Origin: an uncultured Candidatus Saccharibacteria bacterium
Lineage (GTDB): Bacteria; Patescibacteriota; Doudnabacteria; UBA920
Length of the DNA stretch: 52,254 nt
Assembly (NCBI GenBank): GCA_964453265.1
Contig: CAYVNU010000001.1
Span: 52,022-104,275, forward strand
Direction of reading: 5' to 3'
The translations under genes and the position numbers were made by a program. Below, piece by piece: positions 1-29,701 of the stretch. The notes below the pieces were generated by a model. The model worked only from the letters and a program-made list of their open reading frames with translations. It was not told the origin of the DNA and searched no databases. Position 1 is the first letter of the stretch. Every line of letters begins with the position of its first letter.

Positions 1-330
1 TATGCTGCTAGGTACATTGCCAAAAATATTGTTGCCGCAGGGTTTGCAAAAAAAGTTTTGGTACAACTAGCTTACGCAATTGGCGTGGCTAAACCAGTTT
101 CTATTTTTATAGATACCTACGGAACCGGAAAAATTGCGGACGAAAAATTACAGACAATCTGTGAACAAATTTTCCCGGTAAAGCCGGCGGACATAATTAA
201 AGAGCTTCAATTAGAAAAACCAATTTACGAACAAACCGCAGCCTACGGCCACTTTGGCAGGACAGATGTTCGCTTCCCGTGGGAGAAGACGGATAAAGTA
301 AGAATGATCAGAAAGCTTGCTAAAAGGTAA
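1..330 (+). CDS. metK: S-adenosylmethionine synthetase, C-terminal part (5' end outside window)
   Basis: Frame 1 is open from base 1. Translation [14 protein letters not shown]...AAYGHFGR...FPWEKTD matches the conserved MetK C-terminal domain. Stop TAA at 328-330. Confidence 0.9.
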
Positions 331-368
331 GTTTCCATGCTTGCCCGCCATAGCTTTAGCGACGGCGG
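331..368. repeat. GC-rich repeat module directly after the metK stop
   Basis: The reverse complement of 341-361 is cgctaaagctatggcgggcaa, which matches 2085-2105 at 20/21. It is a GC-rich island in AT-rich context. Confidence 0.6.
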
Positions 369-421
369 GGGAGAAGACAGATAAAGTAAATGCAATTAGG
401 AAATTGGCAAAGAAAAAATAG
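369..421 (+). other. vestigial second copy of the metK 3' coding end
   Basis: 369-389 gggagaagacagataaagtaa matches 281-301 at 20/21. It reads EKTDKVNAIRKLAKKK-stop, versus [15 protein letters not shown]-stop in the live gene. Confidence 0.6.
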
Positions 422-1899: not shown

Positions 1900-3768
1900 A
1901 TGAAACAAAAGTTGTTATTGGTTATAAATTTTTTAGTTATTAGTTTGCTTTTAGTTTACTACGGCGTATTTTTGGCTAAGAAGGTAGATTTAACTACGGC
2001 GGATTTGGGCAGGCATATTGAAAACGGAAAAATTATTGTAAATTCTATTTTGTACCCTCACCCAACCTTTCCCTCATCCACCGACGCTAAAGCTATGGCG
2101 GACAAGGAGGGAGAGGAGGGGGAGCAGCGTGGTACTAGTATATTCACTACCAACCCCAGTAGCAGAGCCGATAAATCGGCACGCTACGGGGCAAGCTATA
2201 AATTACTTATAACCAACTATTATTCTTACACTTTACCTGATCAACCTTTTGTTAATCACCACTGGCTTTCGGGTGTGGTATTTTATTTGATTTATCAAAT
2301 AACTGGGTTTGTCGGATTGTCGTGGTTTTATATTTTACTTGGTTGCGCTACGCTGTGGTTGTTTTTTGATGTTGCAAGAAGGAAGTCTAATTTGTTTATT
2401 GCCAGCGTAATAACCATAGCACTCATGCCTTTACTTGCTTCGCGTACGGAAGTCAGGCCGGAAATGATAACTTACTTTTTTACAGGCGTATTTTTGTGGG
2501 TGTTGTTGGGCTTTAGATTATTCAATAAAAATATTTTGACCTCTCCTGCCCCTTTGGGGCATCCTCCCCACGCCTGGGGAGGAGGGGTAATGTTATTACC
2601 TTTGGTAATGCTGCTTTGGGTTAATTTGCACATAGGGTTTGTGTTTGGGTTTTTGGTTTTGGGGGCGTTTTGGGTGGAGGAGTTAGTAATGTCATTCCGA
2701 GTGCATCCGACTTGTCCGACGAAGTCCGCCTCAGGCGGACGAAGTTGGAGGAATCCCTTTTTTGTAATTAAAACTATATTTAAGGGATCCTTCGCTAGCG
2801 CTCTGGATGGTTATCACAGGCTTAGAAATTTAACTTTAATAGGGTTTTTATGTATAGTTGCCGCTCTTATTAACCCCAACTTTCTAAAAGGATTTTTGTA
2901 CCCTTTAAATATATTTAAAAACTATGGCTATTTAATTGTAGAAAATCAGTCAATTAAATTTTTGGAAAATATAAATTTCTCAAACGGCCAGCACTTTTTA
3001 ATTTTTAAAGCAGTATTTTTGTTAGTTTGCATTAGTTTTCTGGCAGTGGCTGTTAAAAACTGGAAACAACTAAAAATTTCTTTGTTATTGCTTAGTTTGT
3101 TTACAGGCTTGCTCGCATACTATGGCATTAGGCATTTTCCCAGCTTTGCTTTTTTTGCTTTGGTAGCCTTAGCTTATAATGTGAATATTTTATTGGGTAG
3201 CAAGTTATCTTTAAACAAAGGTGGTAACGCGGGAAGAGTTTTTTCCGCTGTAATAATTCCGGTAGGCATATTTTTTGTTTTTATTAATATTTTTTCTAGT
3301 TATGGGGAACTAAAAGCGCGGGCGGATTTTGGCTTAGGGCTTTTGCCTGGGGTTAACGCGTCTGCGGAATTTTTTAAAGAGCAAAACATAAAAGGTCCTA
3401 TATTTAATGACTACGACATAGGTGGGTATTTAATTTACAATATTTATCCGGAAAAGGTTTTTGTAGACAACAGGCCGGAAGCCTATACAGTAGATTTTTT
3501 TGAAAATTATAAATTAATGCAAACAGACCCTTTAAAATGGAAGGAAATGGACGAAAAGTATAATTTTAATTCTATTTTCTTTTCTCACCGTGATTATACG
3601 CCGTGGGCGCAGGCGTTTTTAATATCGCGCATACAAGACCCAGTCTGGGCACCGGTATTTGTGGATGGTTTTAATATAATATTTTTAAAACGTAACGAGC
3701 AGAATAAAGAAATCATTAAGAAATTTGAAATCCCAAAAAGCCGTTTTGGAATAACAACTAGTAAGTAG
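1900..3768 (+). CDS. polytopic membrane protein, possibly GT-C-type glycosyltransferase, carrying three GC-rich in-frame insertions
   Basis: 622 aa with many predicted TM helices and a soluble C-terminal domain. It lies directly upstream of a Dpm1-like GT2. The function is not recognisable with certainty. Confidence 0.45.
   Translation: MKQKLLLVINFLVISLLLVYYGVFLAKKVDLTTADLGRHIENGKIIVNSILYPHPTFPSSTDAKAMADKEGEEGEQRGTSIFTTNPSSRADKSARYGASYKLLITNYYSYTLPDQPFVNHHWLSGVVFYLIYQITGFVGLSWFYILLGCATLWLFFDVARRKSNLFIASVITIALMPLLASRTEVRPEMITYFFTGVFLWVLLGFRLFNKNILTSPAPLGHPPHAWGGGVMLLPLVMLLWVNLHIGFVFGFLVLGAFWVEELVMSFRVHPTCPTKSASGGRSWRNPFFVIKTIFKGSFASALDGYHRLRNLTLIGFLCIVAALINPNFLKGFLYPLNIFKNYGYLIVENQSIKFLENINFSNGQHFLIFKAVFLLVCISFLAVAVKNWKQLKISLLLLSLFTGLLAYYGIRHFPSFAFFALVALAYNVNILLGSKLSLNKGGNAGRVFSAVIIPVGIFFVFINIFSSYGELKARADFGLGLLPGVNASAEFFKEQNIKGPIFNDYDIGGYLIYNIYPEKVFVDNRPEAYTVDFFENYKLMQTDPLKWKEMDEKYNFNSIFFSHRDYTPWAQAFLISRIQDPVWAPVFVDGFNIIFLKRNEQNKEIIKKFEIPKSRFGITTSK
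2054..2196. repeat. GC-rich hairpin repeat element inside a CDS
   Basis: 2081-2105 ccgacgctaaagctatggcggacaa recurs in reverse at 4196-4220 (22/25) and 341-361. A nested hairpin spans 2154-2191 (CCCCaGTAGC..GCCGAT-aa-ATCGGC..GCTACGGGG). It encodes a Pro/Ser/Gly/Glu-rich segment. Confidence 0.65.
2540..2592. repeat. GC-rich hairpin repeat element inside a CDS
   Basis: Hairpins TGCCCC-ttt-GGGGCA (2547-2561) and CCTCCCCA-cgcc-TGGGGAGG (2563-2582). The architecture matches 4118-4157. Confidence 0.6.
2691..2812. repeat. GC-rich repeat element inside a CDS (MITE-like size)
   Basis: 2707-2726 ccgacttgtccgacgaagtc is identical (20/20) to 5938-5957. Hairpin TCCGCC-tca-GGCGGA lies at 2725-2739, flanked by direct gacgaagt. 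The ends gtcattccgag / ctctggatgg are roughly inverted. Confidence 0.6.
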
Positions 3769-3788
3769 CAAGTAGTAGGTAGTAAGTA
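3761..3788. repeat. 4 x 7-nt tandem repeat (gtaagta gcaagta gtaggta gtaagta)
   Basis: Read directly from the sequence. It spans the stop codon of 1900-3768 and the spacer before 3795. Confidence 0.7.
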
Positions 3789-3794
3789 GCCAAA

Positions 3795-4598
3795 ATGATA
3801 CTTTCAATAATCATCCCAGCACATAACGAAGAAAAAACTATTGTCCAAGTTTTGGACAGTGTTTTTAGCGTGCCTTTAGGCGAGTGGGAGAGGGAAGTAG
3901 TTGTGGTTAACGACGGATCGAGTGATGGAACAAAAGACATCTTAGATAAATACACTAGTAATAAAATTATTAAAATTCATCACGCCCAAAATTTAGGCAA
4001 AGGCGCTTCCATCCAAACAGGTTTAAAAGCGGCTACAGGCAATTATGTAATTATTCAGGACGCGGATTTGGAATATGAGCCGGGGGATATTCCTAATCTT
4101 TTATCACAGTTAGGCAACCTCTCTGCCCTAAAGGGCATCTCTCCTCAACAGGAGAGAGAACTGCAGACTGCAGCTGCAGGTTTCCCTCCCTTTTCTTGTC
4201 CGCCAAAGCCTTGGCGTCGGAGGATGAGGGGAGGGATTAAGGGGGAGGTTGCTGTCTTTGGCAACCGCGGCACAAAAAGTTACCCGGAGCGAGGCTTCCA
4301 TTATGTGTTAGGCGCAAAACTCCTAACTTGGACGTTTAATATTTTATTTTGGCAAAATATTAAAGACTTATATACAGGGTATAAACTCATTCCTACTGCT
4401 ATATTTAAAGAACTTGGCATAACATCAACTGGCTTTGAATTTGAAGCTGAGGTAGCTTGTAAACTAGCTTGTAGGGGTGTTAATATAAAAGAAGTTTCTA
4501 TAAACTATAGGCCTAGAAGTAAGGAACAGGGCAAGCATATTGGATGGAAAGATGCGTTTATAGGTTTTAAAAAGATTTTAGAATTAAGAATAAAATAA
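3795..4598 (+). CDS. family 2 glycosyltransferase (Dpm1/polyprenyl-phosphate sugar synthase-like) with a large in-frame GC-rich insertion
   Basis: LSIIIPAHNEEKTI...VVVVNDGSSDGT...IIQDADLEYEPGDIP are GT2 signatures. The segment GNLSALKG...RRRMRGGIKGEV interrupts the conserved core. Confidence 0.85.
   Translation: MILSIIIPAHNEEKTIVQVLDSVFSVPLGEWEREVVVVNDGSSDGTKDILDKYTSNKIIKIHHAQNLGKGASIQTGLKAATGNYVIIQDADLEYEPGDIPNLLSQLGNLSALKGISPQQERELQTAAAGFPPFSCPPKPWRRRMRGGIKGEVAVFGNRGTKSYPERGFHYVLGAKLLTWTFNILFWQNIKDLYTGYKLIPTAIFKELGITSTGFEFEAEVACKLACRGVNIKEVSINYRPRSKEQGKHIGWKDAFIGFKKILELRIK
4116..4250. repeat. composite GC-rich hairpin repeat element inside a CDS
   Basis: Hairpins at 4124-4137 and at 4138-4157 (TCTCTCCT-caac-AGGAGAGA). 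CTGCAG occurs three times at 4161-4179. An outer stem pairs TCCCTCCC (4183-4190) with GGGAGGGA (4229-4236). The reverse complement of 4225-4250 matches 7512-7537 at 25/26, and 4196-4220 matches the reverse complement of 2081-2105 at 22/25. Confidence 0.7.
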
Positions 4599-4600
4599 AA

Positions 4601-4963
4601 ATGGATTCTGAAGCAGGATATCTTACTGACAATGAATTAAGCGAGTTAAATAGGAGGTATGAGGTTTTAGCTAACTATTTTCAAACATTGAGAATTGCAA
4701 ACCAAAAATATGGACGCTCGGTTTTATTTCATGTAACTGGCAATCTACTTCAAACTTTTAAATCTCAATTTTCTTTAACAAGGGATACCGATGAAAGAAT
4801 TCAATCTATAACTAAATTAAGAGTTTTAATAGATGATATTGATTTTTATGCAAAAAAACTGATTGATCCTGAATTTTTAAAGAGAGAGTTAAGACATGAT
4901 GATGTGAAAATTTGTGAAGAATATATAAATAAATTAAAAGCAGAAACAAATGATCCAAAATAA
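4601..4963 (+). CDS. hypothetical protein (ORFan, helical)
   Basis: 120-aa ORF in operon context with a 14-nt overlap with tkt. No recognisable family. Confidence 0.4.
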   Translation: MDSEAGYLTDNELSELNRRYEVLANYFQTLRIANQKYGRSVLFHVTGNLLQTFKSQFSLTRDTDERIQSITKLRVLIDDIDFYAKKLIDPEFLKRELRHDDVKICEEYINKLKAETNDPK

Positions 4964-6956
4964 TTTACCAGAGTTAGCAAAATTAGTTAGGTATTACTCG
5001 CTTGTTTCTACTACTGAGGCGGGGAGCGGGCATCCTTCTTCATCGCTTTCTGCCACCGATGTTATGGTGGGGTTGATGTTCGGAGGACATTTTAAAGCTG
5101 ATTTAGACAATCCACAGAATCCAAATAACGACCGATTAATTTTTAGCAAAGGCCATGCCTCGCCTTTGTTTTATAGTTTGTACGCGGTGGCGGGGCAGAA
5201 ATCAGGTTCCTCCCCTCATGAGGGGAGGTTAGGTGGGGTCATTGAAAAGGAAGTTAAATCACTAGAGTCTGCTACGACCTCCCCCAGCCCCTCCTCACGA
5301 GGAGGGGAGTTAAAACGGGCAATGGTTCCGGAGGAGATGTTATTGCTTAGAAAATTTGGAAGCCGACTTGAAGGACATCCTACTTTAGAATTTAAATATA
5401 CAGAAGTTCCGACCGGGAGTTTAGGACAAGGTCTTAGTGCAGGGCTTGGTATGGCTTTAAATGCCAAACTTGATAAGTTAAGCTATAACACTTTTGTTTT
5501 AATGGGCGACAGCGAAATTGCGGAAGGTAGCGTGTGGGAGGCGGTGCAAGTTGCGGCGCATTATGAATTAAATAATTTGTATGCAATTGTAGATGTAAAC
5601 CGTTTGGGGCAAAGGGGGCAAACTATGTCAGGGCACGATGTAGAAAGAATTGCAGCAATGTTTACCTCTTTTGGCTGGAACACGAGCATAATTTATAAAG
5701 ACGAGGGTTTTGACAAAATAAATGAAGTTTTTACGGACGCGCTAAATAAGAAACATGGGCAAGTCGGGCCTACGGCTATTATTGTCCAGACTTTAAAAGG
5801 TAAAGGCGTGAGTTTTATGGAAGACAAAGACGGCTGGCATGGCAAGGCTTTGACGAAGGACGAGCTAGTGAAGGCATTAGAAGAATTAGGTGAGATAGAT
5901 AAAACTTTAGTTGGAGTAATTTCAAAGCCCGAGTCCTCCGACTTGTCCGACGAAGTCTTGGCGAAGTCGGAAGCTTTAGCGAAGGCGGAAAAATCAGTTG
6001 GTGATTTAAAATTTACAGCTTACGATGTTTCAAAATCCGTGGCCACTCGTAAAGCCTACGGTAATGCCTTGGTAAATATTTTAGAAACATATCCAAATGC
6101 TGTGGTGTTAGATGCAGAAACTAGTAATTCTACCTATTCCGAATTTGTTAAAAAAACTCATCCAGAAAGCTTTTTTGAAATGTATATTGCAGAGCAAAAT
6201 ATGGTAGGTACGGCTTTAGGTTTTAGTAGAAGAGGAAAAATTCCGTTTGTTTCTACTTTCGCGGCATTTTTAAGCCGCGCTTTTGACCAAATTCGTATGT
6301 CGCAGTATGCAGACAGTAATATTAAATTTGTGGGTTCGCACGCGGGCGTAAGTATAGGCGAAGACGGCGCCAGTCAAATGGCGCTCGAAGACATTGCAAT
6401 GTTTAGAACGGTGTTTGGTGGAGTTGTTTTATATCCTTCCGACGCAGTAAGCACTGAAAAATTAGTCGCAGAAGCAGCTAAACACCACGGCAATGTATAT
6501 ATTCGAACAACCCGTAAAGAAACTCCTGTTTTGTATGGCGCAGATGATGAATTTAAAATTGGGGGTTCAAAGGTACTTAAATCATCAGCTACCGATGTTG
6601 CAACTGTAATTGGTGCGGGCGTTACTTTACACGAAGCTTTAGCTGCATATGAGGAATTAAAGAAAGAAGGGATAAATATTCGGGTAATAGATTTATATAG
6701 TATTAAGCCAATAGATACAGAAACGCTTAAAAAAGCAGCTATGGAAACAAAAAATATAATTACGGTTGAAGACCATTTTGCGGAAGGGGGCTTAGGGGAA
6801 GCGGTGGCAAGCGCACTTGCAATTCAGAATGTAGAATTCAGAATGCAGAATTTAGCAGTCATGAAAATGCCAAAGTCAGGAAAACCGGATGAACTTTTGG
6901 CATATGAAGAAATAAATAGCCAGTCCATTATAAATAAAATTAAAGACTTGGTATAA
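4950..6956 (+). CDS. tkt: transketolase, N- and C-terminal halves fused in one ORF
   Basis: AGSGHPSSSLSATDVM, GDSEIAEGSVWEA, ATRKAYGNAL and EDGASQMALEDIAMFR are transketolase motifs. Two GC-rich in-frame insertions are present. Confidence 0.9.
   Translation: MIQNNLPELAKLVRYYSLVSTTEAGSGHPSSSLSATDVMVGLMFGGHFKADLDNPQNPNNDRLIFSKGHASPLFYSLYAVAGQKSGSSPHEGRLGGVIEKEVKSLESATTSPSPSSRGGELKRAMVPEEMLLLRKFGSRLEGHPTLEFKYTEVPTGSLGQGLSAGLGMALNAKLDKLSYNTFVLMGDSEIAEGSVWEAVQVAAHYELNNLYAIVDVNRLGQRGQTMSGHDVERIAAMFTSFGWNTSIIYKDEGFDKINEVFTDALNKKHGQVGPTAIIVQTLKGKGVSFMEDKDGWHGKALTKDELVKALEELGEIDKTLVGVISKPESSDLSDEVLAKSEALAKAEKSVGDLKFTAYDVSKSVATRKAYGNALVNILETYPNAVVLDAETSNSTYSEFVKKTHPESFFEMYIAEQNMVGTALGFSRRGKIPFVSTFAAFLSRAFDQIRMSQYADSNIKFVGSHAGVSIGEDGASQMALEDIAMFRTVFGGVVLYPSDAVSTEKLVAEAAKHHGNVYIRTTRKETPVLYGADDEFKIGGSKVLKSSATDVATVIGAGVTLHEALAAYEELKKEGINIRVIDLYSIKPIDTETLKKAAMETKNIITVEDHFAEGGLGEAVASALAIQNVEFRMQNLAVMKMPKSGKPDELLAYEEINSQSIINKIKDLV
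5197..5310. repeat. GC-rich hairpin repeat pair inside tkt
   Basis: Perfect 20-nt palindrome cctcccctcatgaggggagg at 5209-5228 and near-palindrome cccctcctcacgaggagggg at 5288-5307. They interrupt the conserved PLFYSLYAVAG / LRKFGSRLEGHP region. Confidence 0.65.
5929..5988. repeat. GC-rich repeat element at the junction of the two transketolase halves
   Basis: 5938-5957 is identical to 2707-2726. 5938-5966 matches 46401-46429 at 27/29. It encodes ESSDLSDEVLAKSEALAKAEKS. Confidence 0.65.
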
Positions 6957-6963
6957 TATATAT

Positions 6964-7272
6964 ATGGTATTTGATCCAGAGAGGAATAATTTAACACCTG
7001 ACAATGCTGGCTCATTTAGTGTAAATGAGAAAAACTTTGTTCGCAGTGAGGTTTTACAAGGTGTGACTTATGTATATATTAAATTTCAGATGCCCAGAGC
7101 GGATCTACGAGAATTTTTATTACTGGAGGGAAATAGATATGATCTATCTATAGATCTAAAGGAAAAACAAGGTCCCGCAAAAGTAGAATTAGTTTCTCAT
7201 ACCATGATAGAGGATACGGATAAAACTTTAGGACCTATTTACGAGTTAAGATTAAAAGTTTTGCCAGATTAA
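6964..7272 (+). CDS. hypothetical protein (ORFan)
   Basis: 102-aa ORF filling the tkt-glpX spacer. No recognisable family. Confidence 0.4.
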   Translation: MVFDPERNNLTPDNAGSFSVNEKNFVRSEVLQGVTYVYIKFQMPRADLREFLLLEGNRYDLSIDLKEKQGPAKVELVSHTMIEDTDKTLGPIYELRLKVLPD

Positions 7273-7286
7273 TTTTAGTAAATCTT

Positions 7287-8261
7287 ATGGATAGAAATTT
7301 AGCTTTAGAATTTGTTAGGGTTACCGAGGCGGCGGCTATTGCTGCTGCTAAATGGGTGGGGAAGGGCGAGGGAAAAAAGGCAGATGGCGCTGCGGTAGAC
7401 GAAATGCGTGACAGGTTTAACCAAATAGACTTTGCCGGCACGGTAGTTATTGGCGAAGGCAGCAAAGACGAAGCCCCGGAACTTTATAATGGGGAAAAAG
7501 TAGGAAAATACAACCTCTCCCTTAATCCCTCCCCTCAGAAGGGGAGGGAAACTGTGCACTTAGATTTGGCTATAGACCCGCTAGAATGCACAGACAGCGT
7601 TGCATATGGGCGTTACAATGCCATTTCTGTTATTGCAGCTGGAGCCAAAGGCTCTTTACTTAATGCGCCAGACACCTATATGGAAAAGTTGGCGGCTGGG
7701 CCAAAGGCGGCTAAGGTTATAAAAATGGGTTTACCGGTTAAAACTAATATTGAAAGAGTGGCAAAGGCACTTGGTAAAAAGGTCAGGGACGTAACTGTGG
7801 TAGTAATGGAACGCGAACGCCATAAAGATTTAATTGCTCAAATTAGAAAAGCCGGGGCTCGCGTGCGCCTAATAACCGACGGTGATGTTGCGGCAGGTAT
7901 TGCGCCGTGTCTTCCGGAATCTGGAATAGATCTTTTAATGGGGATAGGTGCTTCGGCCGAGTCTGTTTTAGCCGGAGTAGCAGTTAAAATTTTAGGCGGC
8001 CAGCTTTACGCCCGCTTTAACCCGCTTAAAGATTCGCATAGGGAGCTTTTAAAAAAAGCAGGTCTTAACGACAAAAAAGTTTATGGCGTGGAAGAGTTGT
8101 GTAAAGGCAAAATTCTTACTTTCACCGCAACTGGCATAATAGATGGTCCATTATTACAAGGGGTTCGTTACGTTGAAAATACAATAATTACCCATTCGGT
8201 AGTAATTAGGGGACAGAGTGGAACTATACGCTATATTACTACGCATCATAAGGAAAAATAA
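7287..8261 (+). CDS. glpX: class II fructose-1,6-bisphosphatase (GlpX type)
   Basis: LALEFVRVTEAAAIAAAKWVGKGEGKKADGAAVDEMR, DLAIDPLECT and TDGDVAAGI are GlpX hallmarks. Confidence 0.9.
   Translation: MDRNLALEFVRVTEAAAIAAAKWVGKGEGKKADGAAVDEMRDRFNQIDFAGTVVIGEGSKDEAPELYNGEKVGKYNLSLNPSPQKGRETVHLDLAIDPLECTDSVAYGRYNAISVIAAGAKGSLLNAPDTYMEKLAAGPKAAKVIKMGLPVKTNIERVAKALGKKVRDVTVVVMERERHKDLIAQIRKAGARVRLITDGDVAAGIAPCLPESGIDLLMGIGASAESVLAGVAVKILGGQLYARFNPLKDSHRELLKKAGLNDKKVYGVEELCKGKILTFTATGIIDGPLLQGVRYVENTIITHSVVIRGQSGTIRYITTHHKEK
7511..7553. repeat. GC-rich hairpin repeat inside glpX
   Basis: 10-bp stem tccctcccct-caga-aggggaggga at 7526-7549. 7512-7537 matches the reverse complement of 4225-4250 at 25/26. 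It inserts about 15 aa (YNLSLNPSPQKGRET) before the conserved DxxxDPLE motif. Confidence 0.7.
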
Positions 8262-10588: not shown

Positions 10589-10600
10589 TTTTTCTGGCTT

Positions 10601-10628
10601 TACTAATTACTAATTTTTACAAATATAC
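10601..10628. repeat. left arm of a 28-bp inverted repeat bracketing the GxxExxY gene
   Basis: tactaattactaatttttacaaatatac matches the reverse complement of 11047-11074 at 25/28. It ends 2 nt before the GTG start. Confidence 0.75.
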
Positions 10629-10630
10629 GA

Positions 10631-11047
10631 GTGGATGAATCGCTAGATAAAAATTTAACTATAAGGAAACGTGAAGATTTGATTTACGCCGGGGAATGTT
10701 ATAAGATCGTTGGTATTTTGATGTCTGTTTTTAACGAACTAGGACATGGATATGAAGAAAAAACTTATCAGAAAGCCGTGGCAATTGCACTACAAAAGGC
10801 AGGTTGGAAATTTGTTGAACAGCTTTACAGTCCGGTTGTTTATGAAGGTAAAGTGATAGATAGAAATTTTTTCGATTTTTTGATAAACGATATAATAGTT
10901 TTGGAAATAAAGCGCGGTGACCATTTTTCCTCAGTTCATATTAAGCAAGTTTATGAGTATTTAAAGTCAAAAAAATTAAAATTAGGGATTTTGGCTTATT
11001 TTGCTCCTAGAGGCGTGCATTATAAGAGGATAGTGAATTTAAATTAG
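10631..11047 (+). CDS. GxxExxY family protein (PD-(D/E)XK-like fold family)
   Basis: YAGECYKIVGILMSVFNELGHGYEEKTYQKAVAIALQKAG carries the name-giving G..E..Y motif and family architecture. GTG start. Confidence 0.8.
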   Translation: MDESLDKNLTIRKREDLIYAGECYKIVGILMSVFNELGHGYEEKTYQKAVAIALQKAGWKFVEQLYSPVVYEGKVIDRNFFDFLINDIIVLEIKRGDHFSSVHIKQVYEYLKSKKLKLGILAYFAPRGVHYKRIVNLN

Positions 11048-11074
11048 TATATTTGTACTAATTAGTAGTTAGTA
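11047..11074. repeat. right arm of the 28-bp inverted repeat bracketing the GxxExxY gene
   Basis: gtatatttgtactaattagtagttagta overlaps the last base of the stop codon. Confidence 0.75.
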
Positions 11075-11095
11075 AATAAAATAAGTAATTATAAA

Positions 11096-11968: not shown

Positions 11969-12042
11969 CGGGCTGTCGTATACCGGTAGTACGTCTGCTT
12001 TGGGAGCAGATAGACTGGGTTCAATTCCCAGCAGCCCGACCA
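11969..12042 (+). tRNA. tRNA-Pro (anticodon UGG), CCA encoded
   Basis: Acceptor CGGGCTG/CAGCCCG. Anticodon stem TCTGC/GCAGA with loop TTTGGGA (TGG followed by G37). T-arm CTGGG-TTCAATT-CCCAG. Discriminator A plus CCA. Confidence 0.85.
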
Positions 12043-12244: not shown

Positions 12245-12736
12245 AGCATTTTTTACCTTAAATAAGGTATAAATTGTGAATATTCCCTGGCTTTTTGTAT
12301 TTTAATACATTACAGTCAGCGACTATAAATTCTTGTAACATATAAGAGTTATAGCCGTCTAACAACATACGCTTCAATAAAACAGCATATTTGGGTAGGT
12401 ATTTTCTTATTAAATGATTGTCATGTGCTTGCTGTTATTATAAAGCGCTTAACCTTAATTATTGAGCCTATTTTAGGCCAGCTTTCTTTAGGCTAAAATT
12501 GCACTAAATTAACCTGTTGGGGAATTTGTGAAATTTTAGACCTATGGTCGATAAGTCAGCGTTAAAGTTTAAAACTGGTTTCAATAATCATCCATTTTTA
12601 AAATGTGGCTAAGTGATCTCTAGAGCTCTTAGTAAACACTTTAAAACCGGGATGTAAAATTAATTAAAAATTTAAGCACAAGATTGATTGTCTCAATTGA
12701 ATAATCAATAGGCTTAAATGGAGTAAAATTTAACAA

Positions 12737-15700
12737 ATGCAAAATTCTGTCGCAAAGAAACTCTTTGCTGTAGGATCCGCGGTTGCAATGACCATGTCCT
12801 TGGCAGCTCCGTTGGTAGCACAAGCTGCTGCCCACACTGCCGGTACTAACGTTATTTCTTCAGACGGTACTGTTTGGATGATTACATCTAACAATACTCG
12901 CCGCGCCTACACTTCCGGCGGCGCTTTCTTGTCTTACGGTTTCAACTCGTTTGCAAACGTACAGACTGCTAACGCCGACGACTTAGCCTTGCCAGTTGAT
13001 GGCTTAGGCTTTATACCTCCTCAGGATGGTTCAATTATTTGTTCCGACAGAGGATCTGACAAAGGTACTTGCTACTTTATTACCAATGGTAAAAAAGCTG
13101 GCTTCGTATCTCAACAGGTTTTCACTGGTTTAGGCTTTAGTTTTACTAACGCTATGAACGGTGATGTTTCTTTCTTGGCATCTGATGCCAATATTGAAAA
13201 TACTACCGCCGCTTTAAAGACCGGCGCTATTACCTTCTTTACTTACAACGGTAATAAAACCTACTTCTTGGTAGGAGCTTCTAGTTTGTTAGGTATTCCT
13301 AGCAACGAAGTCTTTAACTCTTGGGGATATTCCTTCAAGAAAGCAGTACCAGCTAACGCTGCAACTCAGGCTTGGCCTGTTGCTGGCGTAATGGTTGCTC
13401 GCCAACTTGGACAATTGTCTCCTTCCTGGACTTCTACCCCTGGCAACCCGGCACCAGTGCCTGGAACTGTTAGTGTTAGCACAGCTCCTGGTTTAGCTCC
13501 TTCCGCCACTGTACCTAAGAGCGCAACTAACGTTCCGTTCTTAAAGTTTATGATTAGCAACAATGGCAGCAGCGCTGCTACTGTTGATCAGATAACTGTA
13601 CACAGAAGCGGAAGCGGTGCTACAACCGACTTCTCTAACGTTTACGTATACCAGGGTAACATGAGATTAACAACCGGTAGAACCATTAACAGCTCTACAA
13701 ATGATGCTGTATTCTCCGGTCTTAGCCTCAACATCCCTGCTATGTCTAGCGTTACCTTAGATGTATTAGGCAGCATTGCTTCCACTGCTTCAGCTGGAAA
13801 CGTACATGCTTTGTCTATTACTTCAGTTATGCTTGGTTCAACCCAGGCCACCGGCACTGCTATGGGCAATTACATGACCTTAGCTGGCGTAACCGGCGGT
13901 ACAGTTACCGTTACTAAGAACGGTACCATGGCTAACCCAAAAGTTGGTCAAACCAACGTAAGGGTTGCTGCTTTCCAATTAGCCGCTTCTTCTTCTGAAG
14001 ATTTGGTTGTAAAGCGCATTACTGTTTACCAGGCTGGTTCTACAGCCCGCGGTAACTTGTCTAACTTCAAATTAACTCAAGCTGGCAACACTCTTGCCAC
14101 TGTCGCTTCCTTAGACAACAAAGATCACGCCAACTTTGACGTAAACTTTGCTTTAGCTAAAGGCGATACAAAAGTATTTGAAGTTTGGGCCGATGTTTCT
14201 GGTTCTGCCAGAGCTGGTTCTACCGAAACTGTTAAGTTTTATATAGAAGAAACTGCCGACATCTACGCAGTTGGCCAGACCTATGGTTTTGGTTCAGCTG
14301 TTGATACCGGTACTTCTGGAACTTACGACGGTACTTCCTGTACTTCCTCCTCCGGCAATTGTTCTTACAGCTACATTGAAGGCGGTCAATTGACCATGAC
14401 CTTTAATGGTCCTGCTGCTAAAGACATTGCTAAGAATGGGAAAGCTGTTGAATTATTCAACTTTACTGTAGCTGCCCAAAATTCTTTGGAAATGCGCGGT
14501 ATTAAGTTTACCTTCAACAACGGTGGTAGCGGAACTGCAAACTTTAACGATGCAACAACTCCTAACTACACCAACATCAAGATTGTAGACACCACTACCG
14601 GTCAGGTAGTTTGGGGTCCTCAAGACTTATCCGGCACTGGTAGCGCAACCTCTCAGGACGTTACCTTTACCGAATACGTAAACTTTGCAGCAGGTACTTC
14701 CAAAACTTACAAAATGGTTGCTGACGTTGCTAACAACTCTGATGTTGCTGCCAACGACAAAATCGGTGTAACTATGGTTACCAGCTACTTAACTTCCAGC
14801 AAAGTTAAGAACATTGACAACAACACCTTCTTGTCTTCAACTGACATTGTTCCAACCTCTAGCTTGGTTGGTAACCAAATGACTGTTAAGACTGCTACTT
14901 TGGCCGTTGCTTTGTCTTCTACTCCGACTTCCAAGTCCTACGTAAAAGGCACTAGCATGGTTGATGCAGCCGGTATTGTGTTTACCGCTTCCACTGCAAA
15001 AGATGTAAAAGTTACCGACCTTACCTTAACTGGTATGATTGCTACTTCTACTTCCAGCACTTTGGCTGATGGTGTACAATCCAGCGTCAATGTATCTGAC
15101 GATATAGTAACTGTCGCTCTTTATGACGGCGCTACTCAAATCGGCCAGACAAAGTCTCCGGCTGTTACCACAGGTACAGTTACATTCAATAGCTTGAATT
15201 GGACTATTCCTGCCGGTTCCTCCAAGACTTTAACTGTTAAGATGAGCATCAGCTCTGCTGCTACTTCATCTGACAAAATTAAGTGGAAAGTAGCCGCTGG
15301 CGGCGTTACTGCTGTTGATATGGAAGGTAACTCAGTAGTTGATGCTACTGGTCTTACAACCACCATCCCAGCATCTGCTGTTAACGGTTCTACTTCTACT
15401 TCTTCCGGTACAACCATCACCATTTCCGGTGCTGGTACTGTTTCTGTAGCCACTTCTGGCAACAACGAACAGGATGTAACTGACGCTCGTGTCGTTACTG
15501 CCGGTGCTATGGGCGTTACTATGGGCAAAGTTAACTTTACTGCTTCTAACGAAGACTTAAAGTTAAACAAAGTCCGTATTAATGTTCAATCCGCAAGCTC
15601 CAGCGGTACTGGTTCAAATATCGGTGACGAAATTAACGCCTTGTACTTGTACGATGGCGCTACTAAAGTTGCCGGTCCAGTCAGCTTAACTCCTTCCGGT

Positions 15701-16555
15701 TCTACCGAAGGTTATGCTGATTTCACCAGTCTCGCTCCGGATTTTGTAGTTACCAAAGATAACACTAAGACTCTAACTGTTAAAGCCGACTTAAATACTA
15801 TTTCTGGCGGTGCTGACAGTGGTGCTCAGTTTAATATTGCTCTCGACGGCACTAACAACTTCGAAGTTCGCGGTGTAGTCGGCAATACTTTGTTAACTGC
15901 TCCTTCCAGCGGAACTTACGCAGGCAGCTTGTATGTCTTGCGCAAGTCTCAGCCTAGAGTTGCGGTTGTTGCGTTACCAAGCGGCACAAAATTGTCCACT
16001 GGTACCAATACATTATTCCGCTTCTCCATTACTGCTGTTGACGGTCCTGTTGCTGTAAAGCACATTACCTTCACCAGCTCCACCTCTACCGGCGTAACTT
16101 TGTCCAACCCGGCCATTGCTCGCCAAGGTGGCAGTAATATTACCGTAACCTCTGCCAGCACTTATAGCGCAGGCAGTGCAGCTTTCGATGTTACCTTTAA
16201 CTCTGAAGAGTTAATTGACACCGGCAGCTCGGTAACTTATGACTTTAAAGCCGATGCATCTTTGAGCGGCCAAACCAATTACTCAGTTAGTACCAGAATT
16301 GCTTCCAGCGACACCGCTGTAGTAACTGGTTACTTAACTTCAGCATTGGCTGCTGCTCAGCAAGTTACTGACGATGATGCAGCTCTTGGTGTCGGTAACG
16401 CCACCTCTGCTGCTTCAGCCGCCTATAACTTCATCTGGTCTGATAAGTCTGCTGTTCCTCACAATGACACTGTAGGTTCAGGCGGTTCACACGACTGGAC
16501 TAACGGTCTTGGCGTGAAGACCCTTCCGACTGACTCACAAGGTTTGTCCTTCTAA
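12737..16555 (+). CDS. large secreted cell-surface protein (S-layer-like) with N-terminal triple repeat and multiple beta-sandwich-like modules
   Basis: Signal peptide MQNSVAKKLFAVGSAVAMTMSLAAPLVAQA-AA. 1272 aa, rich in Thr/Ser/Ala/Gly/Val and almost Cys-free. Modules of about 110-130 aa recur. Strong preference for AAC/GAC/TAC/TTC/GGT/GCT/ACT codons, unlike the neighbouring genes. GGAG lies 13 nt upstream of the ATG. Confidence 0.7.
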   Translation: MQNSVAKKLFAVGSAVAMTMSLAAPLVAQAAAHTAGTNVISSDGTVWMITSNNTRRAYTSGGAFLSYGFNSFANVQTANADDLALPVDGLGFIPPQDGSIICSDRGSDKGTCYFITNGKKAGFVSQQVFTGLGFSFTNAMNGDVSFLASDANIENTTAALKTGAITFFTYNGNKTYFLVGASSLLGIPSNEVFNSWGYSFKKAVPANAATQAWPVAGVMVARQLGQLSPSWTSTPGNPAPVPGTVSVSTAPGLAPSATVPKSATNVPFLKFMISNNGSSAATVDQITVHRSGSGATTDFSNVYVYQGNMRLTTGRTINSSTNDAVFSGLSLNIPAMSSVTLDVLGSIASTASAGNVHALSITSVMLGSTQATGTAMGNYMTLAGVTGGTVTVTKNGTMANPKVGQTNVRVAAFQLAASSSEDLVVKRITVYQAGSTARGNLSNFKLTQAGNTLATVASLDNKDHANFDVNFALAKGDTKVFEVWADVSGSARAGSTETVKFYIEETADIYAVGQTYGFGSAVDTGTSGTYDGTSCTSSSGNCSYSYIEGGQLTMTFNGPAAKDIAKNGKAVELFNFTVAAQNSLEMRGIKFTFNNGGSGTANFNDATTPNYTNIKIVDTTTGQVVWGPQDLSGTGSATSQDVTFTEYVNFAAGTSKTYKMVADVANNSDVAANDKIGVTMVTSYLTSSKVKNIDNNTFLSSTDIVPTSSLVGNQMTVKTATLAVALSSTPTSKSYVKGTSMVDAAGIVFTASTAKDVKVTDLTLTGMIATSTSSTLADGVQSSVNVSDDIVTVALYDGATQIGQTKSPAVTTGTVTFNSLNWTIPAGSSKTLTVKMSISSAATSSDKIKWKVAAGGVTAVDMEGNSVVDATGLTTTIPASAVNGSTSTSSGTTITISGAGTVSVATSGNNEQDVTDARVVTAGAMGVTMGKVNFTASNEDLKLNKVRINVQSASSSGTGSNIGDEINALYLYDGATKVAGPVSLTPSGSTEGYADFTSLAPDFVVTKDNTKTLTVKADLNTISGGADSGAQFNIALDGTNNFEVRGVVGNTLLTAPSSGTYAGSLYVLRKSQPRVAVVALPSGTKLSTGTNTLFRFSITAVDGPVAVKHITFTSSTSTGVTLSNPAIARQGGSNITVTSASTYSAGSAAFDVTFNSEELIDTGSSVTYDFKADASLSGQTNYSVSTRIASSDTAVVTGYLTSALAAAQQVTDDDAALGVGNATSAASAAYNFIWSDKSAVPHNDTVGSGGSHDWTNGLGVKTLPTDSQGLSF

Positions 16556-16611
16556 CTTAGCTTTTAGCTAACGTAAGAAAGCCCGCTTTAGGCCTTGGAA
16601 AAATAAAGCAA

Positions 16612-18267: not shown

Positions 18268-20508
18268 ATGAAAAATTCGAATCAAACGCAGCCAAATTAT
18301 AAATCTGGCGGGGTTTTATTCCAGATGTTTTTTGTTTTGGTTGGTCTTTCGGTTTTAGTGCCACTGTTAACTTTTAAGAGTTTGTTGTATCCGTTTGTTA
18401 CTGGAAAAACTTTTTTGTTTAGAATACTTATTGAAGCTGCTTTTCCTTTATATGTTTATTTTCTTTCAAAAGAAAAGAAACTAAGGCCAAGTTTAAAAGA
18501 TTATTTAAATTTTAGCCTTTTAGTTTTTCTATTTTTAAGTTTAATATCAACAGTTTTTGGCTTAAATGCTGGTAAGAGCATGTGGGGGAATTTTGAAAGA
18601 ATGGGCGGTTTTTTTACCCTCATCCATTATTTTGCGTTATACTTTTATTTGCTTCTAATTGTTCGTCAAAATCAAAAGTATTTTGATTTATTTTTTAAAT
18701 TTTTAGTTTTTGTAAGTTTTGCAGTTTCACTCAATGCAATTTCTTCTAAGTTTGGCGGACCTTCATTAGTTTTTGATTTGTGGCTGGAGGGTGGGCGTGT
18801 ATCATCGACTTTAGGTAATCCGATTTATCTGGGTAGTTTTTTAATTTTGCCAATGGCCTTAGGATTGGTGTACATGGAAAGAGCGACAAATTTTAAAATT
18901 AAATTGCTTTATGCGGTTAGCGTGTTTTTTATGCTTTGGGCGATTTTTTTAAGCGCGACTCGCGGAGCGTTATTGGGAGTATTTGTCGGTCTTGTTGTGG
19001 GGATTTTCATTTTTTTATTTTTTGGCAAAAAGAATTTGGCAAAAAGAATTATTTTGCCTGGCGCTATTATTTTTTTATTAGCAATTGCTAGCTTGTTCTT
19101 TTTTAAAAACAATTTACCCGAGACTTTCGTGCTTAGGCGTGCTTTGGAATTTAACGATCAGAATACGCAATCTAGGTTGCTGCAATGGAAATTGGTTTTG
19201 CACGGATTTAAAGAGCATTTTTTACTTGGCACCGGACCTGAAAATTATAATATCCTCGCTAATAAACATTATGAGCCGAAACAATACAGCTTAGATAAAA
19301 GCTGGTTTGATAAACCTCATAATTACTTTTTGGAGATTTTAGCCACCCAAGGGATTTTGGGAATTATTTCTTATTTGGCAGTGATGGTATTGGCATTTTG
19401 GTCATTATTTCAAGCTTTTAAATCTCAGTATTTGAGTTTATTTAGTTTTGCCGTTCTTGTTTCCGGCTTTGTCGCTTATCAGGCCCAGAATTTTTTTGTA
19501 TTCGAAACTATTTGCGCAAGCATAGTTTTTTATGCTTATTTAGCTTTTATGCATAGTCAGAATTTTGAAAGCGGCAACGCACCAACATCTGCGAAGAAAA
19601 CTTTTTCTTATGGCAATATCGTACTTGCTATTTTTGCGATAATTGCTTTTTATTTTATATACGCATTCAATATTTTGCCATGGAAAATGGCCAAGTTGCT
19701 TAATTCCGGATTGACTGCTTATGCAAAACTAAGTCCACCAAATTATGATTTGGCTAAAACTTTGTTTGACCGGGCTGATGGAATGAATCTAGGTTTTGAT
19801 ACCACTGAATTATTTTATAAATATTCAGATATGGCTTTGGCAGCCGCACAAAGCAGCGGGGAAGTAAAACAGGAATTTGTTAAAGGGGTTTTATCTGACG
19901 GTGTTCATATTGGCCAAAAAGCCATTTTAGAAAACCCAACTAATCCTGTTAATTTATATTATTTAGCCACTTTAAAATATTTTTCTGAATTAGCTAGTAA
20001 AGGGCAAAATTTTCAAGAAACAATTGATGGTTTGAATAAGGCTTATAACTTAGCACCAAAAAGACCGGAAATTTACTATATGTTGGTTGCTGCGAATGTA
20101 GCTGCAAAAAATTATAGTCAGGCGGAAAATTTCGCCAGGGAATATTATAAAAATTATCCTTGGCTTAGCCAGGGCGTTTGGCAAATGGCCTGGGTAAATT
20201 ATAAAAAAAATAATCTACCGGAAGCAGGTAAATATGCTTTGGATGCTGTTAGTAAAGGCTATAAAGTAGAAACATTTTCAGAAGGCAAATTGTTTGCGGA
20301 TTATTTTTATTCTATAAACCAGCCTGAACAAGTTGTAAAAATTTATGAGCAGCTGGTTAAGACTGATGAGCATAATTTGCAGGTTTATTTAGGTTTGACC
20401 GAGGCATATTATTTAAATAGGCAGTTTAATGAAGCAAAAAATTTAGCCAATGAAATTATTACAGCGGACCCGTCTCAAAAAATGAGTTTAGAAAAATATT
20501 TAAAATAA
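18268..20508 (+). CDS. O-antigen ligase-like (Wzy_C) polytopic membrane protein with C-terminal TPR domain
   Basis: GNPIYLGSFLILP, SATRGALLG and RLLQWKLVLHGFKEHFLLGTGPENY match the Wzy_C/O-antigen-ligase pattern, followed by C-terminal TPR repeats. Paralog of 22291-24549. Confidence 0.75.
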   Translation: MKNSNQTQPNYKSGGVLFQMFFVLVGLSVLVPLLTFKSLLYPFVTGKTFLFRILIEAAFPLYVYFLSKEKKLRPSLKDYLNFSLLVFLFLSLISTVFGLNAGKSMWGNFERMGGFFTLIHYFALYFYLLLIVRQNQKYFDLFFKFLVFVSFAVSLNAISSKFGGPSLVFDLWLEGGRVSSTLGNPIYLGSFLILPMALGLVYMERATNFKIKLLYAVSVFFMLWAIFLSATRGALLGVFVGLVVGIFIFLFFGKKNLAKRIILPGAIIFLLAIASLFFFKNNLPETFVLRRALEFNDQNTQSRLLQWKLVLHGFKEHFLLGTGPENYNILANKHYEPKQYSLDKSWFDKPHNYFLEILATQGILGIISYLAVMVLAFWSLFQAFKSQYLSLFSFAVLVSGFVAYQAQNFFVFETICASIVFYAYLAFMHSQNFESGNAPTSAKKTFSYGNIVLAIFAIIAFYFIYAFNILPWKMAKLLNSGLTAYAKLSPPNYDLAKTLFDRADGMNLGFDTTELFYKYSDMALAAAQSSGEVKQEFVKGVLSDGVHIGQKAILENPTNPVNLYYLATLKYFSELASKGQNFQETIDGLNKAYNLAPKRPEIYYMLVAANVAAKNYSQAENFAREYYKNYPWLSQGVWQMAWVNYKKNNLPEAGKYALDAVSKGYKVETFSEGKLFADYFYSINQPEQVVKIYEQLVKTDEHNLQVYLGLTEAYYLNRQFNEAKNLANEIITADPSQKMSLEKYLK

Positions 20509-28710: not shown

Positions 28711-29654
28711 TGCTTAATTTAAAAAATTCTAAAATTTTATTAACTGGCGGTTATGGCTTTTTAGGTCAAAGAGTTTTTTTAGAATTGTTAAAAGCAGGTG
28801 CGAATGAAAGACAAATTCAAATGCCAAGAAGTAAAAGTTTGGATTTAAGGATTCAGAAAAATTGCCAAAGGGCTGTCAAAGGTAAAGATTTGATTATTCA
28901 TTTGGCTGCCAATGTGGGTGGCATAGGTTACAACAAAGAAAATCCCGGCAAACTTTTTTACGACAATGCCACTATGGGCATAAATTTAATTGAAGCTGCC
29001 AGAGAGGCGAGGGTAAAAAAATTCGTACAAGTCGGCACGGTTTGCGCGTATCCGAAATTTCCCGAGCACATTCCTTTTAAAGAAGAAGATTTGTGGAAAG
29101 GTTATCCGGAAGAAACCAACGCGCCTTACGGTATAGCTAAATTAGCTTTGCTTGAAATGCTTCAATCTTATCGCAAACAGTACGGATTTAATGGCATTTA
29201 TTTGCTGCCTACCAATTTGTACGGTCCGGGCGATAATTTCGACCCTAAATCTTCCCATGTAATACCCGCCTTAATAAAAAAATTTGTTGAAGCCAAACAG
29301 CAGGGTTTGTCTGAAGTGGTAGTCTGGGGGACAGGTAAGGCTAGCCGGGAATTTTTATATGTAGATGACGCGGCCAGAGCAATTGTTGCGGCTGCGCAAA
29401 AGTACGACAAAGCAGAACCGGTAAATATTGGCTCTAACAATGAAATAAAAATCAAGCAATTAGTGGAAATAATAAGCAAAATTACCGACTATACCGGCAA
29501 AATAGTCTGGGATAAAACCAAGCCCGACGGCCAGCCCAGAAGAAAGCTTGACGTTAGCCGCGCGAAAAAAGAATTAGGTTTTACTTCCAAAATTACTTTC
29601 TCAGTGGGACTTAAGAAAACAATCGAATGGTACATAAAGAATAAAAAAGTTTAA
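28710..29654 (+). CDS. fcl: GDP-L-fucose synthase (GDP-4-keto-6-deoxymannose 3,5-epimerase/4-reductase)
   Basis: ILLTGGYGFLG, NAPYGIAKLALLEM, LPTNLYGPGDNF and SHVIPALIKKF. It has a TAATG overlap with the upstream gene. Confidence 0.88.
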   Translation: MLNLKNSKILLTGGYGFLGQRVFLELLKAGANERQIQMPRSKSLDLRIQKNCQRAVKGKDLIIHLAANVGGIGYNKENPGKLFYDNATMGINLIEAAREARVKKFVQVGTVCAYPKFPEHIPFKEEDLWKGYPEETNAPYGIAKLALLEMLQSYRKQYGFNGIYLLPTNLYGPGDNFDPKSSHVIPALIKKFVEAKQQGLSEVVVWGTGKASREFLYVDDAARAIVAAAQKYDKAEPVNIGSNNEIKIKQLVEIISKITDYTGKIVWDKTKPDGQPRRKLDVSRAKKELGFTSKITFSVGLKKTIEWYIKNKKV

Positions 29655-29663
29655 TAAATCATT

Positions 29664-29701
29664 TCAATCTTTTAAATTATGTCAATTTTGTCAATGAATT
29701 T
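29664..29701 (+). repeat. AT-rich TGTCAAT-containing leader repeat abutting a start codon
   Basis: Matches 40198-40235 at 32/38. Both copies end exactly at an ATG. Confidence 0.6.

Follow-up and report, generated by a model that had tools for sequence, protein, structure and literature searches.

Short GC-rich palindromic repeats sit in frame inside housekeeping genes near one end of a 52,254-nt stretch of DNA, here called the window, from an uncultured Candidatus Saccharibacteria bacterium (contig CAYVNU010000001.1, positions 52,022–104,275 of the forward strand, assembly GCA_964453265.1; GTDB lineage Doudnabacteria, UBA920). These inserts are mosaics of at least four palindromic repeat families, in which units of 20–50 nt, GC-rich within an AT-rich genome, are combined into composites of 45–140 nt. 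Their repeat nature, their nesting, their in-frame position, and the differences in occupancy between orthologous sites are all directly observed. The inserts are quite probably selfish, non-autonomous palindromic DNA, similar in kind to repetitive extragenic palindromic (REP) sequences, Rickettsia palindromic elements (RPEs), and MITEs (transposable elements of the miniature inverted-repeat type), and retained where they are in frame and tolerated. The unusual point is their high frequency inside essential genes of the candidate phyla radiation (CPR), together with the occurrence of short, modular, nested GC-rich families that are spread across Bacteria.

The window is AT-rich, with about 35–38% GC along most of its length. 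Its first 8.3 kb holds the 3′ end of metK, genes for a DUF4258 protein, a Band-7 protein, and a 622-aa membrane protein, and then a GT2 glycosyltransferase, a transketolase (Tkt), and the class II fructose-1,6-bisphosphatase GlpX. The best matches of the Tkt, at 73–74% identity, are proteins of Candidatus Doudnabacteria, Magasanikbacteria, and other Patescibacteria. Seven of the nine copies in the window lie inside open reading frames (ORFs), across four genes that remain intact. The families are named X, Z/Y, W, and V in this analysis, and the two closest syntenic relatives, L002 and L003 (GlpX identity to the window protein 87% and 73%, respectively), provide the comparison of orthologous sites. 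The arrangement is also found in a Logan contig (L001) from an independent assembly of SRR12487046, which is identical to the window over 4.8 kb (2720–7536) and covers three complete inserts and portions of two others. Short-read assemblies do break at these repeats; L001 itself begins at 2720, inside the repeat at 2691–2812, and ends inside the X element at 7511–7553, as expected for sequences that are multicopy in the sample. The idea that repeats were mis-joined into genes during assembly or binning is nevertheless scarcely credible given this independent contig and the intact host ORFs, and given that the same behavior is seen in many independent metagenome-assembled genomes (MAGs) and metagenome contigs, with X-like hairpins also present in cultured bacteria.

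A first-pass annotation of this DNA had claimed that the segments share nucleotide modules in both orientations, and all of the matches it listed were reproduced. Positions 7512–7537 match the reverse complement of 4225–4250 with 1 mismatch in 26, positions 2707–2726 equal 5938–5957 (20/20), and positions 2081–2105 match the reverse complement of 341–365 with 2 mismatches and that of 4196–4220 with 3. A third copy of 2707–2726 lies at 46401–46420 with 2 mismatches. Dinucleotide shuffles gave 0 matches in 100 for each of the three cross-match sets. Extended self-matches within the window reach 51 nt at 80% (2066–2116 against the reverse complement of 4185–4235), 40 nt at 83%, and 27 nt at 96%. 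The perfect palindrome claimed at 5209–5228 and the 10-bp stem at 7526–7549 are likewise real, and a second perfect palindrome was found at 5288–5307. Perfect GC-rich hairpins with a stem of at least 8 bp number seven in the window against about 0.5 in shuffles; four of the seven are of the CCTCCCC/GGGGAGG type, and these are all intragenic and in the first 8 kb. The composites fold well below their shuffled counterparts (z = −4.9 for 2054–2196, −5.2 for 2691–2812, and −4.1 for 4116–4255), and the stabilities of the insert hairpins span −20 to −70 kcal/mol. The statement that no copy occurs in the glycan island farther along the window had to be given up, as the ninth copy, at 46345–46438, sits in a spacer within that stretch.

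Family X has the form AACCTCTCCCTTAA-TCCCTCCCCT-loop-AGGGGAGGGA-AAC and is present in the window in GlpX (7511–7553) and, on the opposite strand, in the GT2 gene (4180–4251). Families Z and Y are one family, described by CTTGTCCG(C/A)C(G/A)AAG(C/T)CTTGGCG..GGCGGA. A fuzzy scan places Z cores at 340, 2085 (minus strand), 4195, 5942, and 46405, and a sixth Z/Y copy at 2711, with its center swapped for another hairpin, is recognized by the match between 2707–2726 and 5938–5957. Family W, (C/T)GTCATT(G/C)CGAG...GAATCC-loop-GGATTC..., forms the outer palindrome of 2691–2812, and the same element is found between metK and the Band-7 gene in both L002 and L003. Family V (GCCGATAAATCGGCACGCTAC, 2167–2187) recurs at L002 8435–8455, at another site of the orthologous membrane protein.

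As a rule, the families are found inside one another. Z occupies the loop of X twice in the window (4180–4251 and 2066–2116) and also in MAGs of Doudnabacteria (L047) and Saccharibacteria (L095), and it lies inside W in the window (2691–2812), in L003, and in several metagenome contigs. The composites end in terminal inverted repeats that pair as closing stems, AACCTCTCT at 4116 with GGGGGAGGTT at 4242–4251 in one case, and 2692–2705 with 2797–2810 in another. In some GC-rich contigs among the metagenome loci L172, L207, L227, and L158, each half of Z forms a tandem array, as in (GTCTTGTCCGCC)n ... (GAAGCCTTGGCGAAGGCG)n, and in other loci of this group Z lies within heptamer tandem repeats, (ATTGCGG)n.

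All seven intragenic inserts in the window keep the frame of their host and are stop-free, and the same is true of 15 intragenic copies of X and Z that were verified on other contigs. The earlier claim that each element keeps the host ORF open in either orientation did not hold: 25 of 54 frames are open over the nine segments, compared with 20.6 in shuffles, and the inserts at 4116–4251 and 5197–5330 each have one open frame in six. A stop-free-by-design property was considered and rejected, because pyrimidine-only and purine-only arms do encode no stops but the whole inserts show no excess of open frames. The absence of such an excess means that the in-frame state of the seven copies points to selection after insertion, and to translation, with selection presumably acting as the filter on which copies remain. 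GC-rich hairpins in AT-rich mitochondrial genes can be bypassed by the ribosome, as with the GC-rich "byp" elements of Magnusiomyces mitochondria, and bypassing is also known from T4 gene 60. The hairpins here are very stable, and stem-loop cassettes resembling those of rRNA intervening sequences (IVSs) exist in the same genomes, at window positions 10599–11076 (PDDEXK_3) and in L002 (PF05635). Removal of the inserts before the protein is made, either by IVS-like excision from the mRNA or by ribosomal skipping, remains very improbable all the same. An element that is removed would be unconstrained in frame and stops, whereas the chance of finding seven of seven window inserts in frame is estimated at about 1e-5 or less and the 15 copies elsewhere behave likewise; in addition, excision of the RNase III type without ligation would cut the mRNA.

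The predicted protein structure is consistent with translated inserts. AlphaFold models the Tkt with a mean predicted local distance difference test score (pLDDT) of 86.4 and a predicted template modeling score of 0.88. Residues 90–117, within the main insert, fall below a pLDDT of 50 between flanks above 90, and the second insert scores 63–67. The low-confidence loop is a plain feature of the model, and it indicates that the main Tkt insert would form a disordered excursion from a confidently predicted fold. The in-frame copies are apparently translated with their host proteins as floppy, disordered surface loops. The segments described at the outset as interrupting the GT2, transketolase, and GlpX proteins are indeed insertions when set against solved structures and orthologs. 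In the GT2 protein, the Pfam match runs out at residue ~107, at the start of the 135-nt segment (Pfam and PDB matches together end at ~103–110). Tkt residues ~83–127 are missing from human TKT structures, with a second, shorter insert near residue 331, and the GlpX insert adds ~12 codons with no counterpart in L002, L003, or solved GlpX structures (6ayy).

Occupancy differs between orthologous sites even among the closest relatives. The X element of GlpX is absent from both L002 and L003. An identical X module (21/21 nt) lies in the membrane protein of L002, at a point where the window has no insert. The membrane protein of the window departs from its L002 ortholog exactly at its three segments; the composite at 2054–2196 is absent from L002, and a different insert occupies the 2540–2592 site there. 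At the first Tkt site, the window has a 45-codon composite, L002 has a different element of Z type (PSFAKASEGESAHGGS), and L003 is empty. At the second, the Y/Z element of the window is replaced in L002 and L003 by an unrelated AT-rich repeat. It seems likely, as part of the same explanation, that the elements are gained, lost, and replaced faster than their host genes diverge, and mobility is what this pattern of presence and absence suggests. The claim that these are mobile or recombining DNA instead of a protein motif is borne out by copies in both orientations, in several frames, and in genes as well as spacers, by orthologous sites that are empty or otherwise occupied, and by the same families in other CPR housekeeping genes.

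The AT-rich repeat at the second Tkt site (L002 10907–10960 and L003 10859–10912; GAAATAAATCCGAAATCCGAAATCCGAAA...) is itself in frame and encodes the peptide EINPKSEIRNPKQIPNP, and NSKFQIPN-type peptides of this repeat class recur in many CPR transketolases. Another AT-rich repeat, AGTAAGTAGCAAGTAGTAGGTAGTAAGTAGC, lies at 3761–3792, at the end of the membrane-protein gene, and is of the same kind as the repeats that flank a PF05635 gene in L002. The peptides NQQSVDSKQ and SEYQVAGSKQ in other CPR transketolases look like translations of a repeat of the 3761–3792 type.

Inserts of this kind extend well beyond the window. The 120 closest Tkt proteins, surveyed for inserts, are 606–739 aa long; half of them (60) contain one or more inserts of at least 8 aa, with up to five in a single protein, and the inserts cluster at about eight recurrent positions. 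Recurring insert peptides, including PSFAKA.EGESA, GRRSPEALAKGE, NPLPKGEG, TPPLLEKEG, and PSLNPSP..GGG, are repeat translations in various frames. In CPR or low-GC contigs, the elements often lie well within identifiable genes. X lies inside genes for MnmA, GuaA, DUF218, YmdB, RarA/MgsA, GrpE, and a GT2 protein, and 7 of ~20 CPR loci with X have it in a Pfam-recognized gene. Z lies inside RecJ, GyrA, an AlkD-like protein, an alpha/beta hydrolase, and glycosyltransferases of CPR or low-GC contigs in at least four frames, and, judged by translation, in an RHS-type toxin and an intein-bearing surface protein as well. The peptide read from Z changes with frame and strand (LSAEALAKAE, LVRRSLGEGG, CPPKPWRRR, SAFAKASADK, or RLRQGFGGQ), and a sequence read as five different peptides excludes a protein motif. 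The recurrent loop positions in many transketolases, the enrichment of the Tkt-family inserts in Pro, Gln, Ser, Arg, Asn, and Gly, and the preferred frame of X in genes are features that ordinary lineage-specific low-complexity loops might also show if they were non-mobile and kept similar by protein-level selection or gene conversion. Such loops have little chance of being the right explanation, however, given the same nucleotide strings in both orientations, in up to five frames, in spacers, and in other phyla, and given orthologous sites that are empty or contain unrelated elements.

Families X and Z extend beyond this lineage; on the strength of database matches they appear widespread in Bacteria, and the breadth of their distribution is itself directly observed. 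A 17-mer of X taken from the GlpX element matches at least 118 stretches in species-representative genomes of more than 10 phyla, against an estimated ~70 matches expected by chance for a random 17-mer in that collection. The complementary arm AGGGGAGGGA lies within 70 nt in 101 of 124 copies (all fetched loci), compared with 107 of 2500 random windows, and the 5′ flank ACC(C/T)C is common to 78 of the 124. With this arm and the shared flank, the 17-mer matches represent a real element. The hosts among the matches listed include Alphaproteobacteria, Nitrospirota, Zixibacteria (10 contigs of one MAG), WOR-3, Bacteroidota, Ignavibacteria, Chloroflexi, Cyanobacteria/Melainabacteria, and many CPR lineages. 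Cultured bacteria carry X-like hairpins as well, in unannotated parts of replicons from Shinella, Aminobacter, Sphingomonas, Rhizobium, and Photobacterium, and across Bacteria X is mostly found in short open frames or unannotated DNA. A 22-nt pattern for Z has at least 120 metagenome matches where about 1 would be expected by chance (an estimate). Among the matches listed, Z-bearing contigs range in GC from 0.32 to 0.71 (median 0.59) with a 30-nt consensus, CTTGTCCGCCGAAGCCTTGGCGAAGGCGGA, and subfamilies of the elements correlate only partially with GC. In IMG/VR, 4 stretches match X and 2 match Z, too few to inform on a phage vector.

The conservation of 17–30-nt cores of X and Z across phyla and over GC contents from 0.32 to 0.71 is hard to obtain by neutral drift, and hairpin stability does not explain the conservation of the Z core. 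These features would suit a domesticated host function at the level of RNA or DNA, such as translation pausing, control of mRNA half-life, factor binding, or a recombination or uptake signal, and REPs elsewhere have been proposed to affect mRNA stability and termination (PMC3733652). A function of this kind is unlikely here, as site occupancy is not conserved even among close relatives and the host genes are unrelated. At the gathering thresholds of Rfam, the window and 12 loci gave tRNAs and one riboswitch and nothing else, so that the repeats match no Rfam family, and no associated gene was found near the X loci of the genome collection (at least 118). Selfish DNA remains the preferred reading for the inserts. 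A broader version, in which the 17–30-nt cores of X, Z, and W extend over most phyla at 32–71% GC, insertion favors the loops of the other elements, and the essential genes of the CPR are colonized proteome-wide, is put forward tentatively; for all of these parts to hold together we would give somewhat less than even chances.

Several observations weigh against reading the inserts as mobile selfish DNA. No transposase or other recurrent gene stands beside X, as judged by all-against-all BLASTP of up to 8 kb around these X loci. No insertion event was seen at nucleotide resolution, the closest relatives having 73–87% protein identity. At this divergence the comparison of orthologs yields no exact boundaries, target-site duplications, or target preference; the loop flanks differ between relatives and gave no empty site at nucleotide resolution. 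Translation of the inserts is deduced from sequence and frame. The count of copies in the source genome is limited to the 52-kb window. All nine plus-orientation intragenic copies of X use the ..SLNPSP.. frame even though a second frame is also open, which hints at peptide-level selection or a non-random process beyond a purely neutral picture. Finally, the Z core does not fold significantly better than its shuffles (z = −0.7), which leaves its strong conservation across GC contents unexplained by a simple hairpin model.

With selfish DNA as the preferred explanation, the process can be envisaged as follows. In gene-dense CPR genomes, many new copies would land in coding sequence, and the survivors would be those with a length that is a multiple of three, free of stops in the frame used, and situated in tolerant surface loops. 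Surviving copies would be transcribed and translated, forming disordered loops with a high content of Pro, Ser, Gly, Arg, and Gln. For the mover, one option would be an enzyme that acts in trans on hairpin DNA, as RAYT/IS200-type enzymes do for REPs; in the other, foreign DNA would be taken up and would then undergo homology-facilitated illegitimate recombination. A transposase recurring near X was tried as a candidate and rejected when the all-against-all BLASTP of ORFs returned only common housekeeping families. PF05635, the four-helix bundle of the 23S-rRNA-IVS type, was rejected as a general partner when phmmer with the L002 protein found no homolog at the X loci of the genome collection. 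No parent insertion sequence with the same ends was seen in ~0.9 Mb around X copies, a span that falls short of a genome-wide search.

The 3′ end of metK is the place in the window that recalls the second option. The last 16 codons of the gene are present twice (283–421), 88 nt apart, around a Z element. The first copy (283–330, plus strand) is translated and resembles L003; the second (371–421, plus strand) is displaced, out of frame, and resembles L002. The two differ mainly at synonymous sites, and the duplication and the element together account for an inserted block of 88 nt. From its sequence, the duplication looks like the footprint of imported DNA joined by illegitimate recombination. 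Foreign DNA consisting of a metK end plus Z may have entered by homologous recombination on one side and illegitimate joining at a GGGAG microhomology on the other.

Two other arrangements in these genomes involve IVS-like genes. In L002, positions 12718–13480 hold a chimeric ORF in which a diverged, foreign-looking 5′ part of glpX is joined to the 3′ end of tkt. The break in the glpX part coincides exactly with the insertion site, and immediately downstream there is an intact glpX. The chimera is followed by a PF05635 gene (23S rRNA IVS/bAvd-like) between the inverted repeats GCAAGTTGTAGGGTTGTAAGTT and AACTTACAACATACAACTTGC. In the window, a 138-aa PD-(D/E)XK ORF (PF13366, PDDEXK_3; 10631–11047) sits exactly between 30-nt AT-rich inverted repeats (10599–10628 and 11047–11076, 90% complementary), with a related repeat at 51721–51764. 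The cassette as a whole (10599–11076) lies between LOG-family and transaldolase genes and resembles an rRNA intervening-sequence cassette in architecture.

The individual copies illustrate how the modules are combined. The Z element at 331–373 (core 340–361, plus strand) lies in the spacer just 3′ of the metK stop and folds with −19.6 kcal/mol (z = −2.3). The membrane protein has three inserts. The first, the composite at 2054–2196, has a pyrimidine/purine outer stem (2066–2075 with 2106–2116) around a minus-strand Z (2081–2105), followed by a second hairpin of family V at ~2153–2192. The second is a double hairpin at 2540–2592, made of GCCCC..GGGGC and TCCTCCCCA..TGGGGAGGA and closed by CCTCTCC/GGAGGGG, that includes a perfect hairpin at 2562–2583 (−29.5 kcal/mol for the whole, z = −2.6). 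The third is the in-frame W palindrome at 2691–2812, TGTCATTCCGAG ... GAATCCCTT-loop-AAGGGATCC ... CTCTGGATGG, with the Y/Z copy at 2707–2750 nested inside and itself holding the hairpin GTCCGCC-TCA-GGCGGAC; parts of it (2780–2810 and 2723–2762) match the intergenic W of L002 (6832–6861) and L003 (8933–8972).

The GT2 insert is a 135-nt composite at 4116–4251, bounded by the terminal inverted repeat AACCTCTCT/GGGGGAGGTT, which holds three small hairpins and the minus-strand X of 4180–4251, whose loop carries Z at 4191–4225. The Tkt gene has its 45-codon insert at 5197–5330, with the two perfect pyrimidine/purine hairpins at 5209–5228 and 5288–5307, and its Y/Z insert in frame at 5929–5990 (plus strand; peptide SSDLSDEVLAKSEALAKAE). 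In GlpX, the plus-strand X at 7511–7553 reads AACCTCTCCCTTAA-TCCCTCCCCT-CAGA-AGGGGAGGGA-AAC, is in frame with the peptide NLSLNPSPQKGRE, and has a 10-bp stem worth −20.4 kcal/mol. A sequence that crosses the junction between insert and host protein is GEKVGKYNLSLNPSPQK. The intergenic copy at 46345–46438 (plus strand) has Y/Z at 46401–46435, preceded by the GC-rich palindrome CCTGCCTGCC..GGCGGAGGCAGG; no ORF spans it, and the flanking genes lie at 45347–46261 and 46732–47784.

Elsewhere in the window, positions 12700–16600, which follow a tRNA gene (11969–12039), have a GC content of 0.42–0.46 and a GC skew reversed relative to the rest, a composition that suggests one or more genes on the other strand or of foreign origin. 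Positions 18808–19361 and 22852–23405 are 70–89% identical and 4044 nt apart, and are probably paralogous genes in tandem. AT-rich repeats (AATCTTTTAAAT...TTGTCAAT) at 29645–29705, 39949–39989, and 40179–40239, direct and inverted with 83–88% identity, might be a shared regulatory or promoter-like motif.

If the broader, pan-bacterial version holds, a sizeable part of the "extra" loops in CPR proteins would be translated selfish DNA spread between lineages with imported DNA, of which the metK duplication would be one case, and a host-independent mobile hairpin system would exist across Bacteria without a known enzyme. The question also arises of what makes and moves these hairpins, given X and Z cores that are conserved over phyla and GC contents and have no gene associated with them. 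The elements would also help explain the low-complexity loops of CPR proteins that disturb alignments, domain calls, phylogenies, and short-read assemblies, and they offer a natural map of insertion-tolerant loops in essential enzymes. The searchable literature, with its incomplete coverage, yielded nothing that links such repeats to Patescibacteria or the CPR and no paper that holds these sequences.

Known systems resemble the inserts in different respects. Bacterial MITEs with in-frame fusions include QMITE1 of Coxiella (PMC5896051), and Anabaena MITEs, ERIC, and BOX are listed as further examples (PMC10969869). The likeness lies in terminal inverted repeats on the composites, lengths of 45–140 nt, non-coding sequence, residence in genes and spacers, and peptides added to proteins. 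The elements described here differ in their shorter, modular units and in that neither a target-site duplication nor a parent insertion sequence was found. Yeast mitochondria have GC clusters and "byp" elements, which are mobile GC-rich hairpins in a compact AT-rich genome, some of them in protein genes, where byps break the frame and the ribosome skips them. They belong to a different domain of life, and the intragenic copies here all keep the frame and are stop-free where an element of the bypass or IVS type would interrupt it.

REPs, and the bacterial interspersed mosaic elements built from them, share with the inserts a basis in short imperfect palindromes that occur across phyla, are sometimes intragenic, and sometimes lie inside other palindromes. 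Di Nocera et al. (2013, PMC3733652) described intragenic REPs in Opitutus, Thauera, Xanthomonas, and Rickettsia and also REPs that lie within other palindromes, and the statement that in-frame palindromic repeats are well known only from Rickettsia was for this reason too strong. REPs are defined there by a GTAG or CGTC (TGTC/CCTC) tag, an 8–9-bp stem starting with AT, a 4–5-nt loop, and a CCA tail, and a CGTC-tagged superfamily that includes RPE-4, RPE-6, and the Neisseria dRS3 has no dedicated transposase (PMC3733652). In size and consensus the elements are like REPs, which are imperfect palindromes of 20–40 nt with a family consensus, X having a 10-bp stem and a consensus found in 101 of 124 copies and Z a 30-nt consensus. 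The closest approach is that of W, which in metagenome loci reads CGTC-ATTGCGAG...GCAAT-CCAG and in the window begins TGTC-ATTCCGAG (TGTC-ATTCC). It has the tag and CCA tail of the CGTC REPs and a stem that starts with AT, but its stem and loop sizes do not fit. A clear GTAG or CGTC tag is lacking in X and Z, the surroundings of the X loci in the genome collection showed no RAYT, and no REP consensus string that matches is given in the supplements of PMC3733652. REPs are also predominantly extragenic, whereas in the window most copies are inside ORFs.

The closest parallel is with the RPEs, of which RPE-1 to RPE-10 are known (Ogata et al. 2000, summarized in PMC10969869). Both are palindromic repeats of small genomes with many copies in frame in unrelated housekeeping genes, and both also occur between genes, are compatible with the fold of their hosts, and have no known transposase. 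In the window, as with RPEs, several palindromic copies occur in both orientations, in frame in unrelated genes and at fold-compatible positions. By description, RPEs are ~100–150 bp, form families of the genus Rickettsia, and each have a conserved peptide, whereas the present elements are 20–50-nt GC-rich units that are nested, read in several frames, and belong to families of which at least two are found in many phyla. The core of the RPE-like reading proposed at the outset is supported. As a description it was too narrow, since X and Z occur in many phyla and elements of this kind have been described beyond Rickettsia. Selfish palindromic DNA in these genes would extend the concept of selfish DNA inside proteins from Rickettsia to the candidate phyla radiation.

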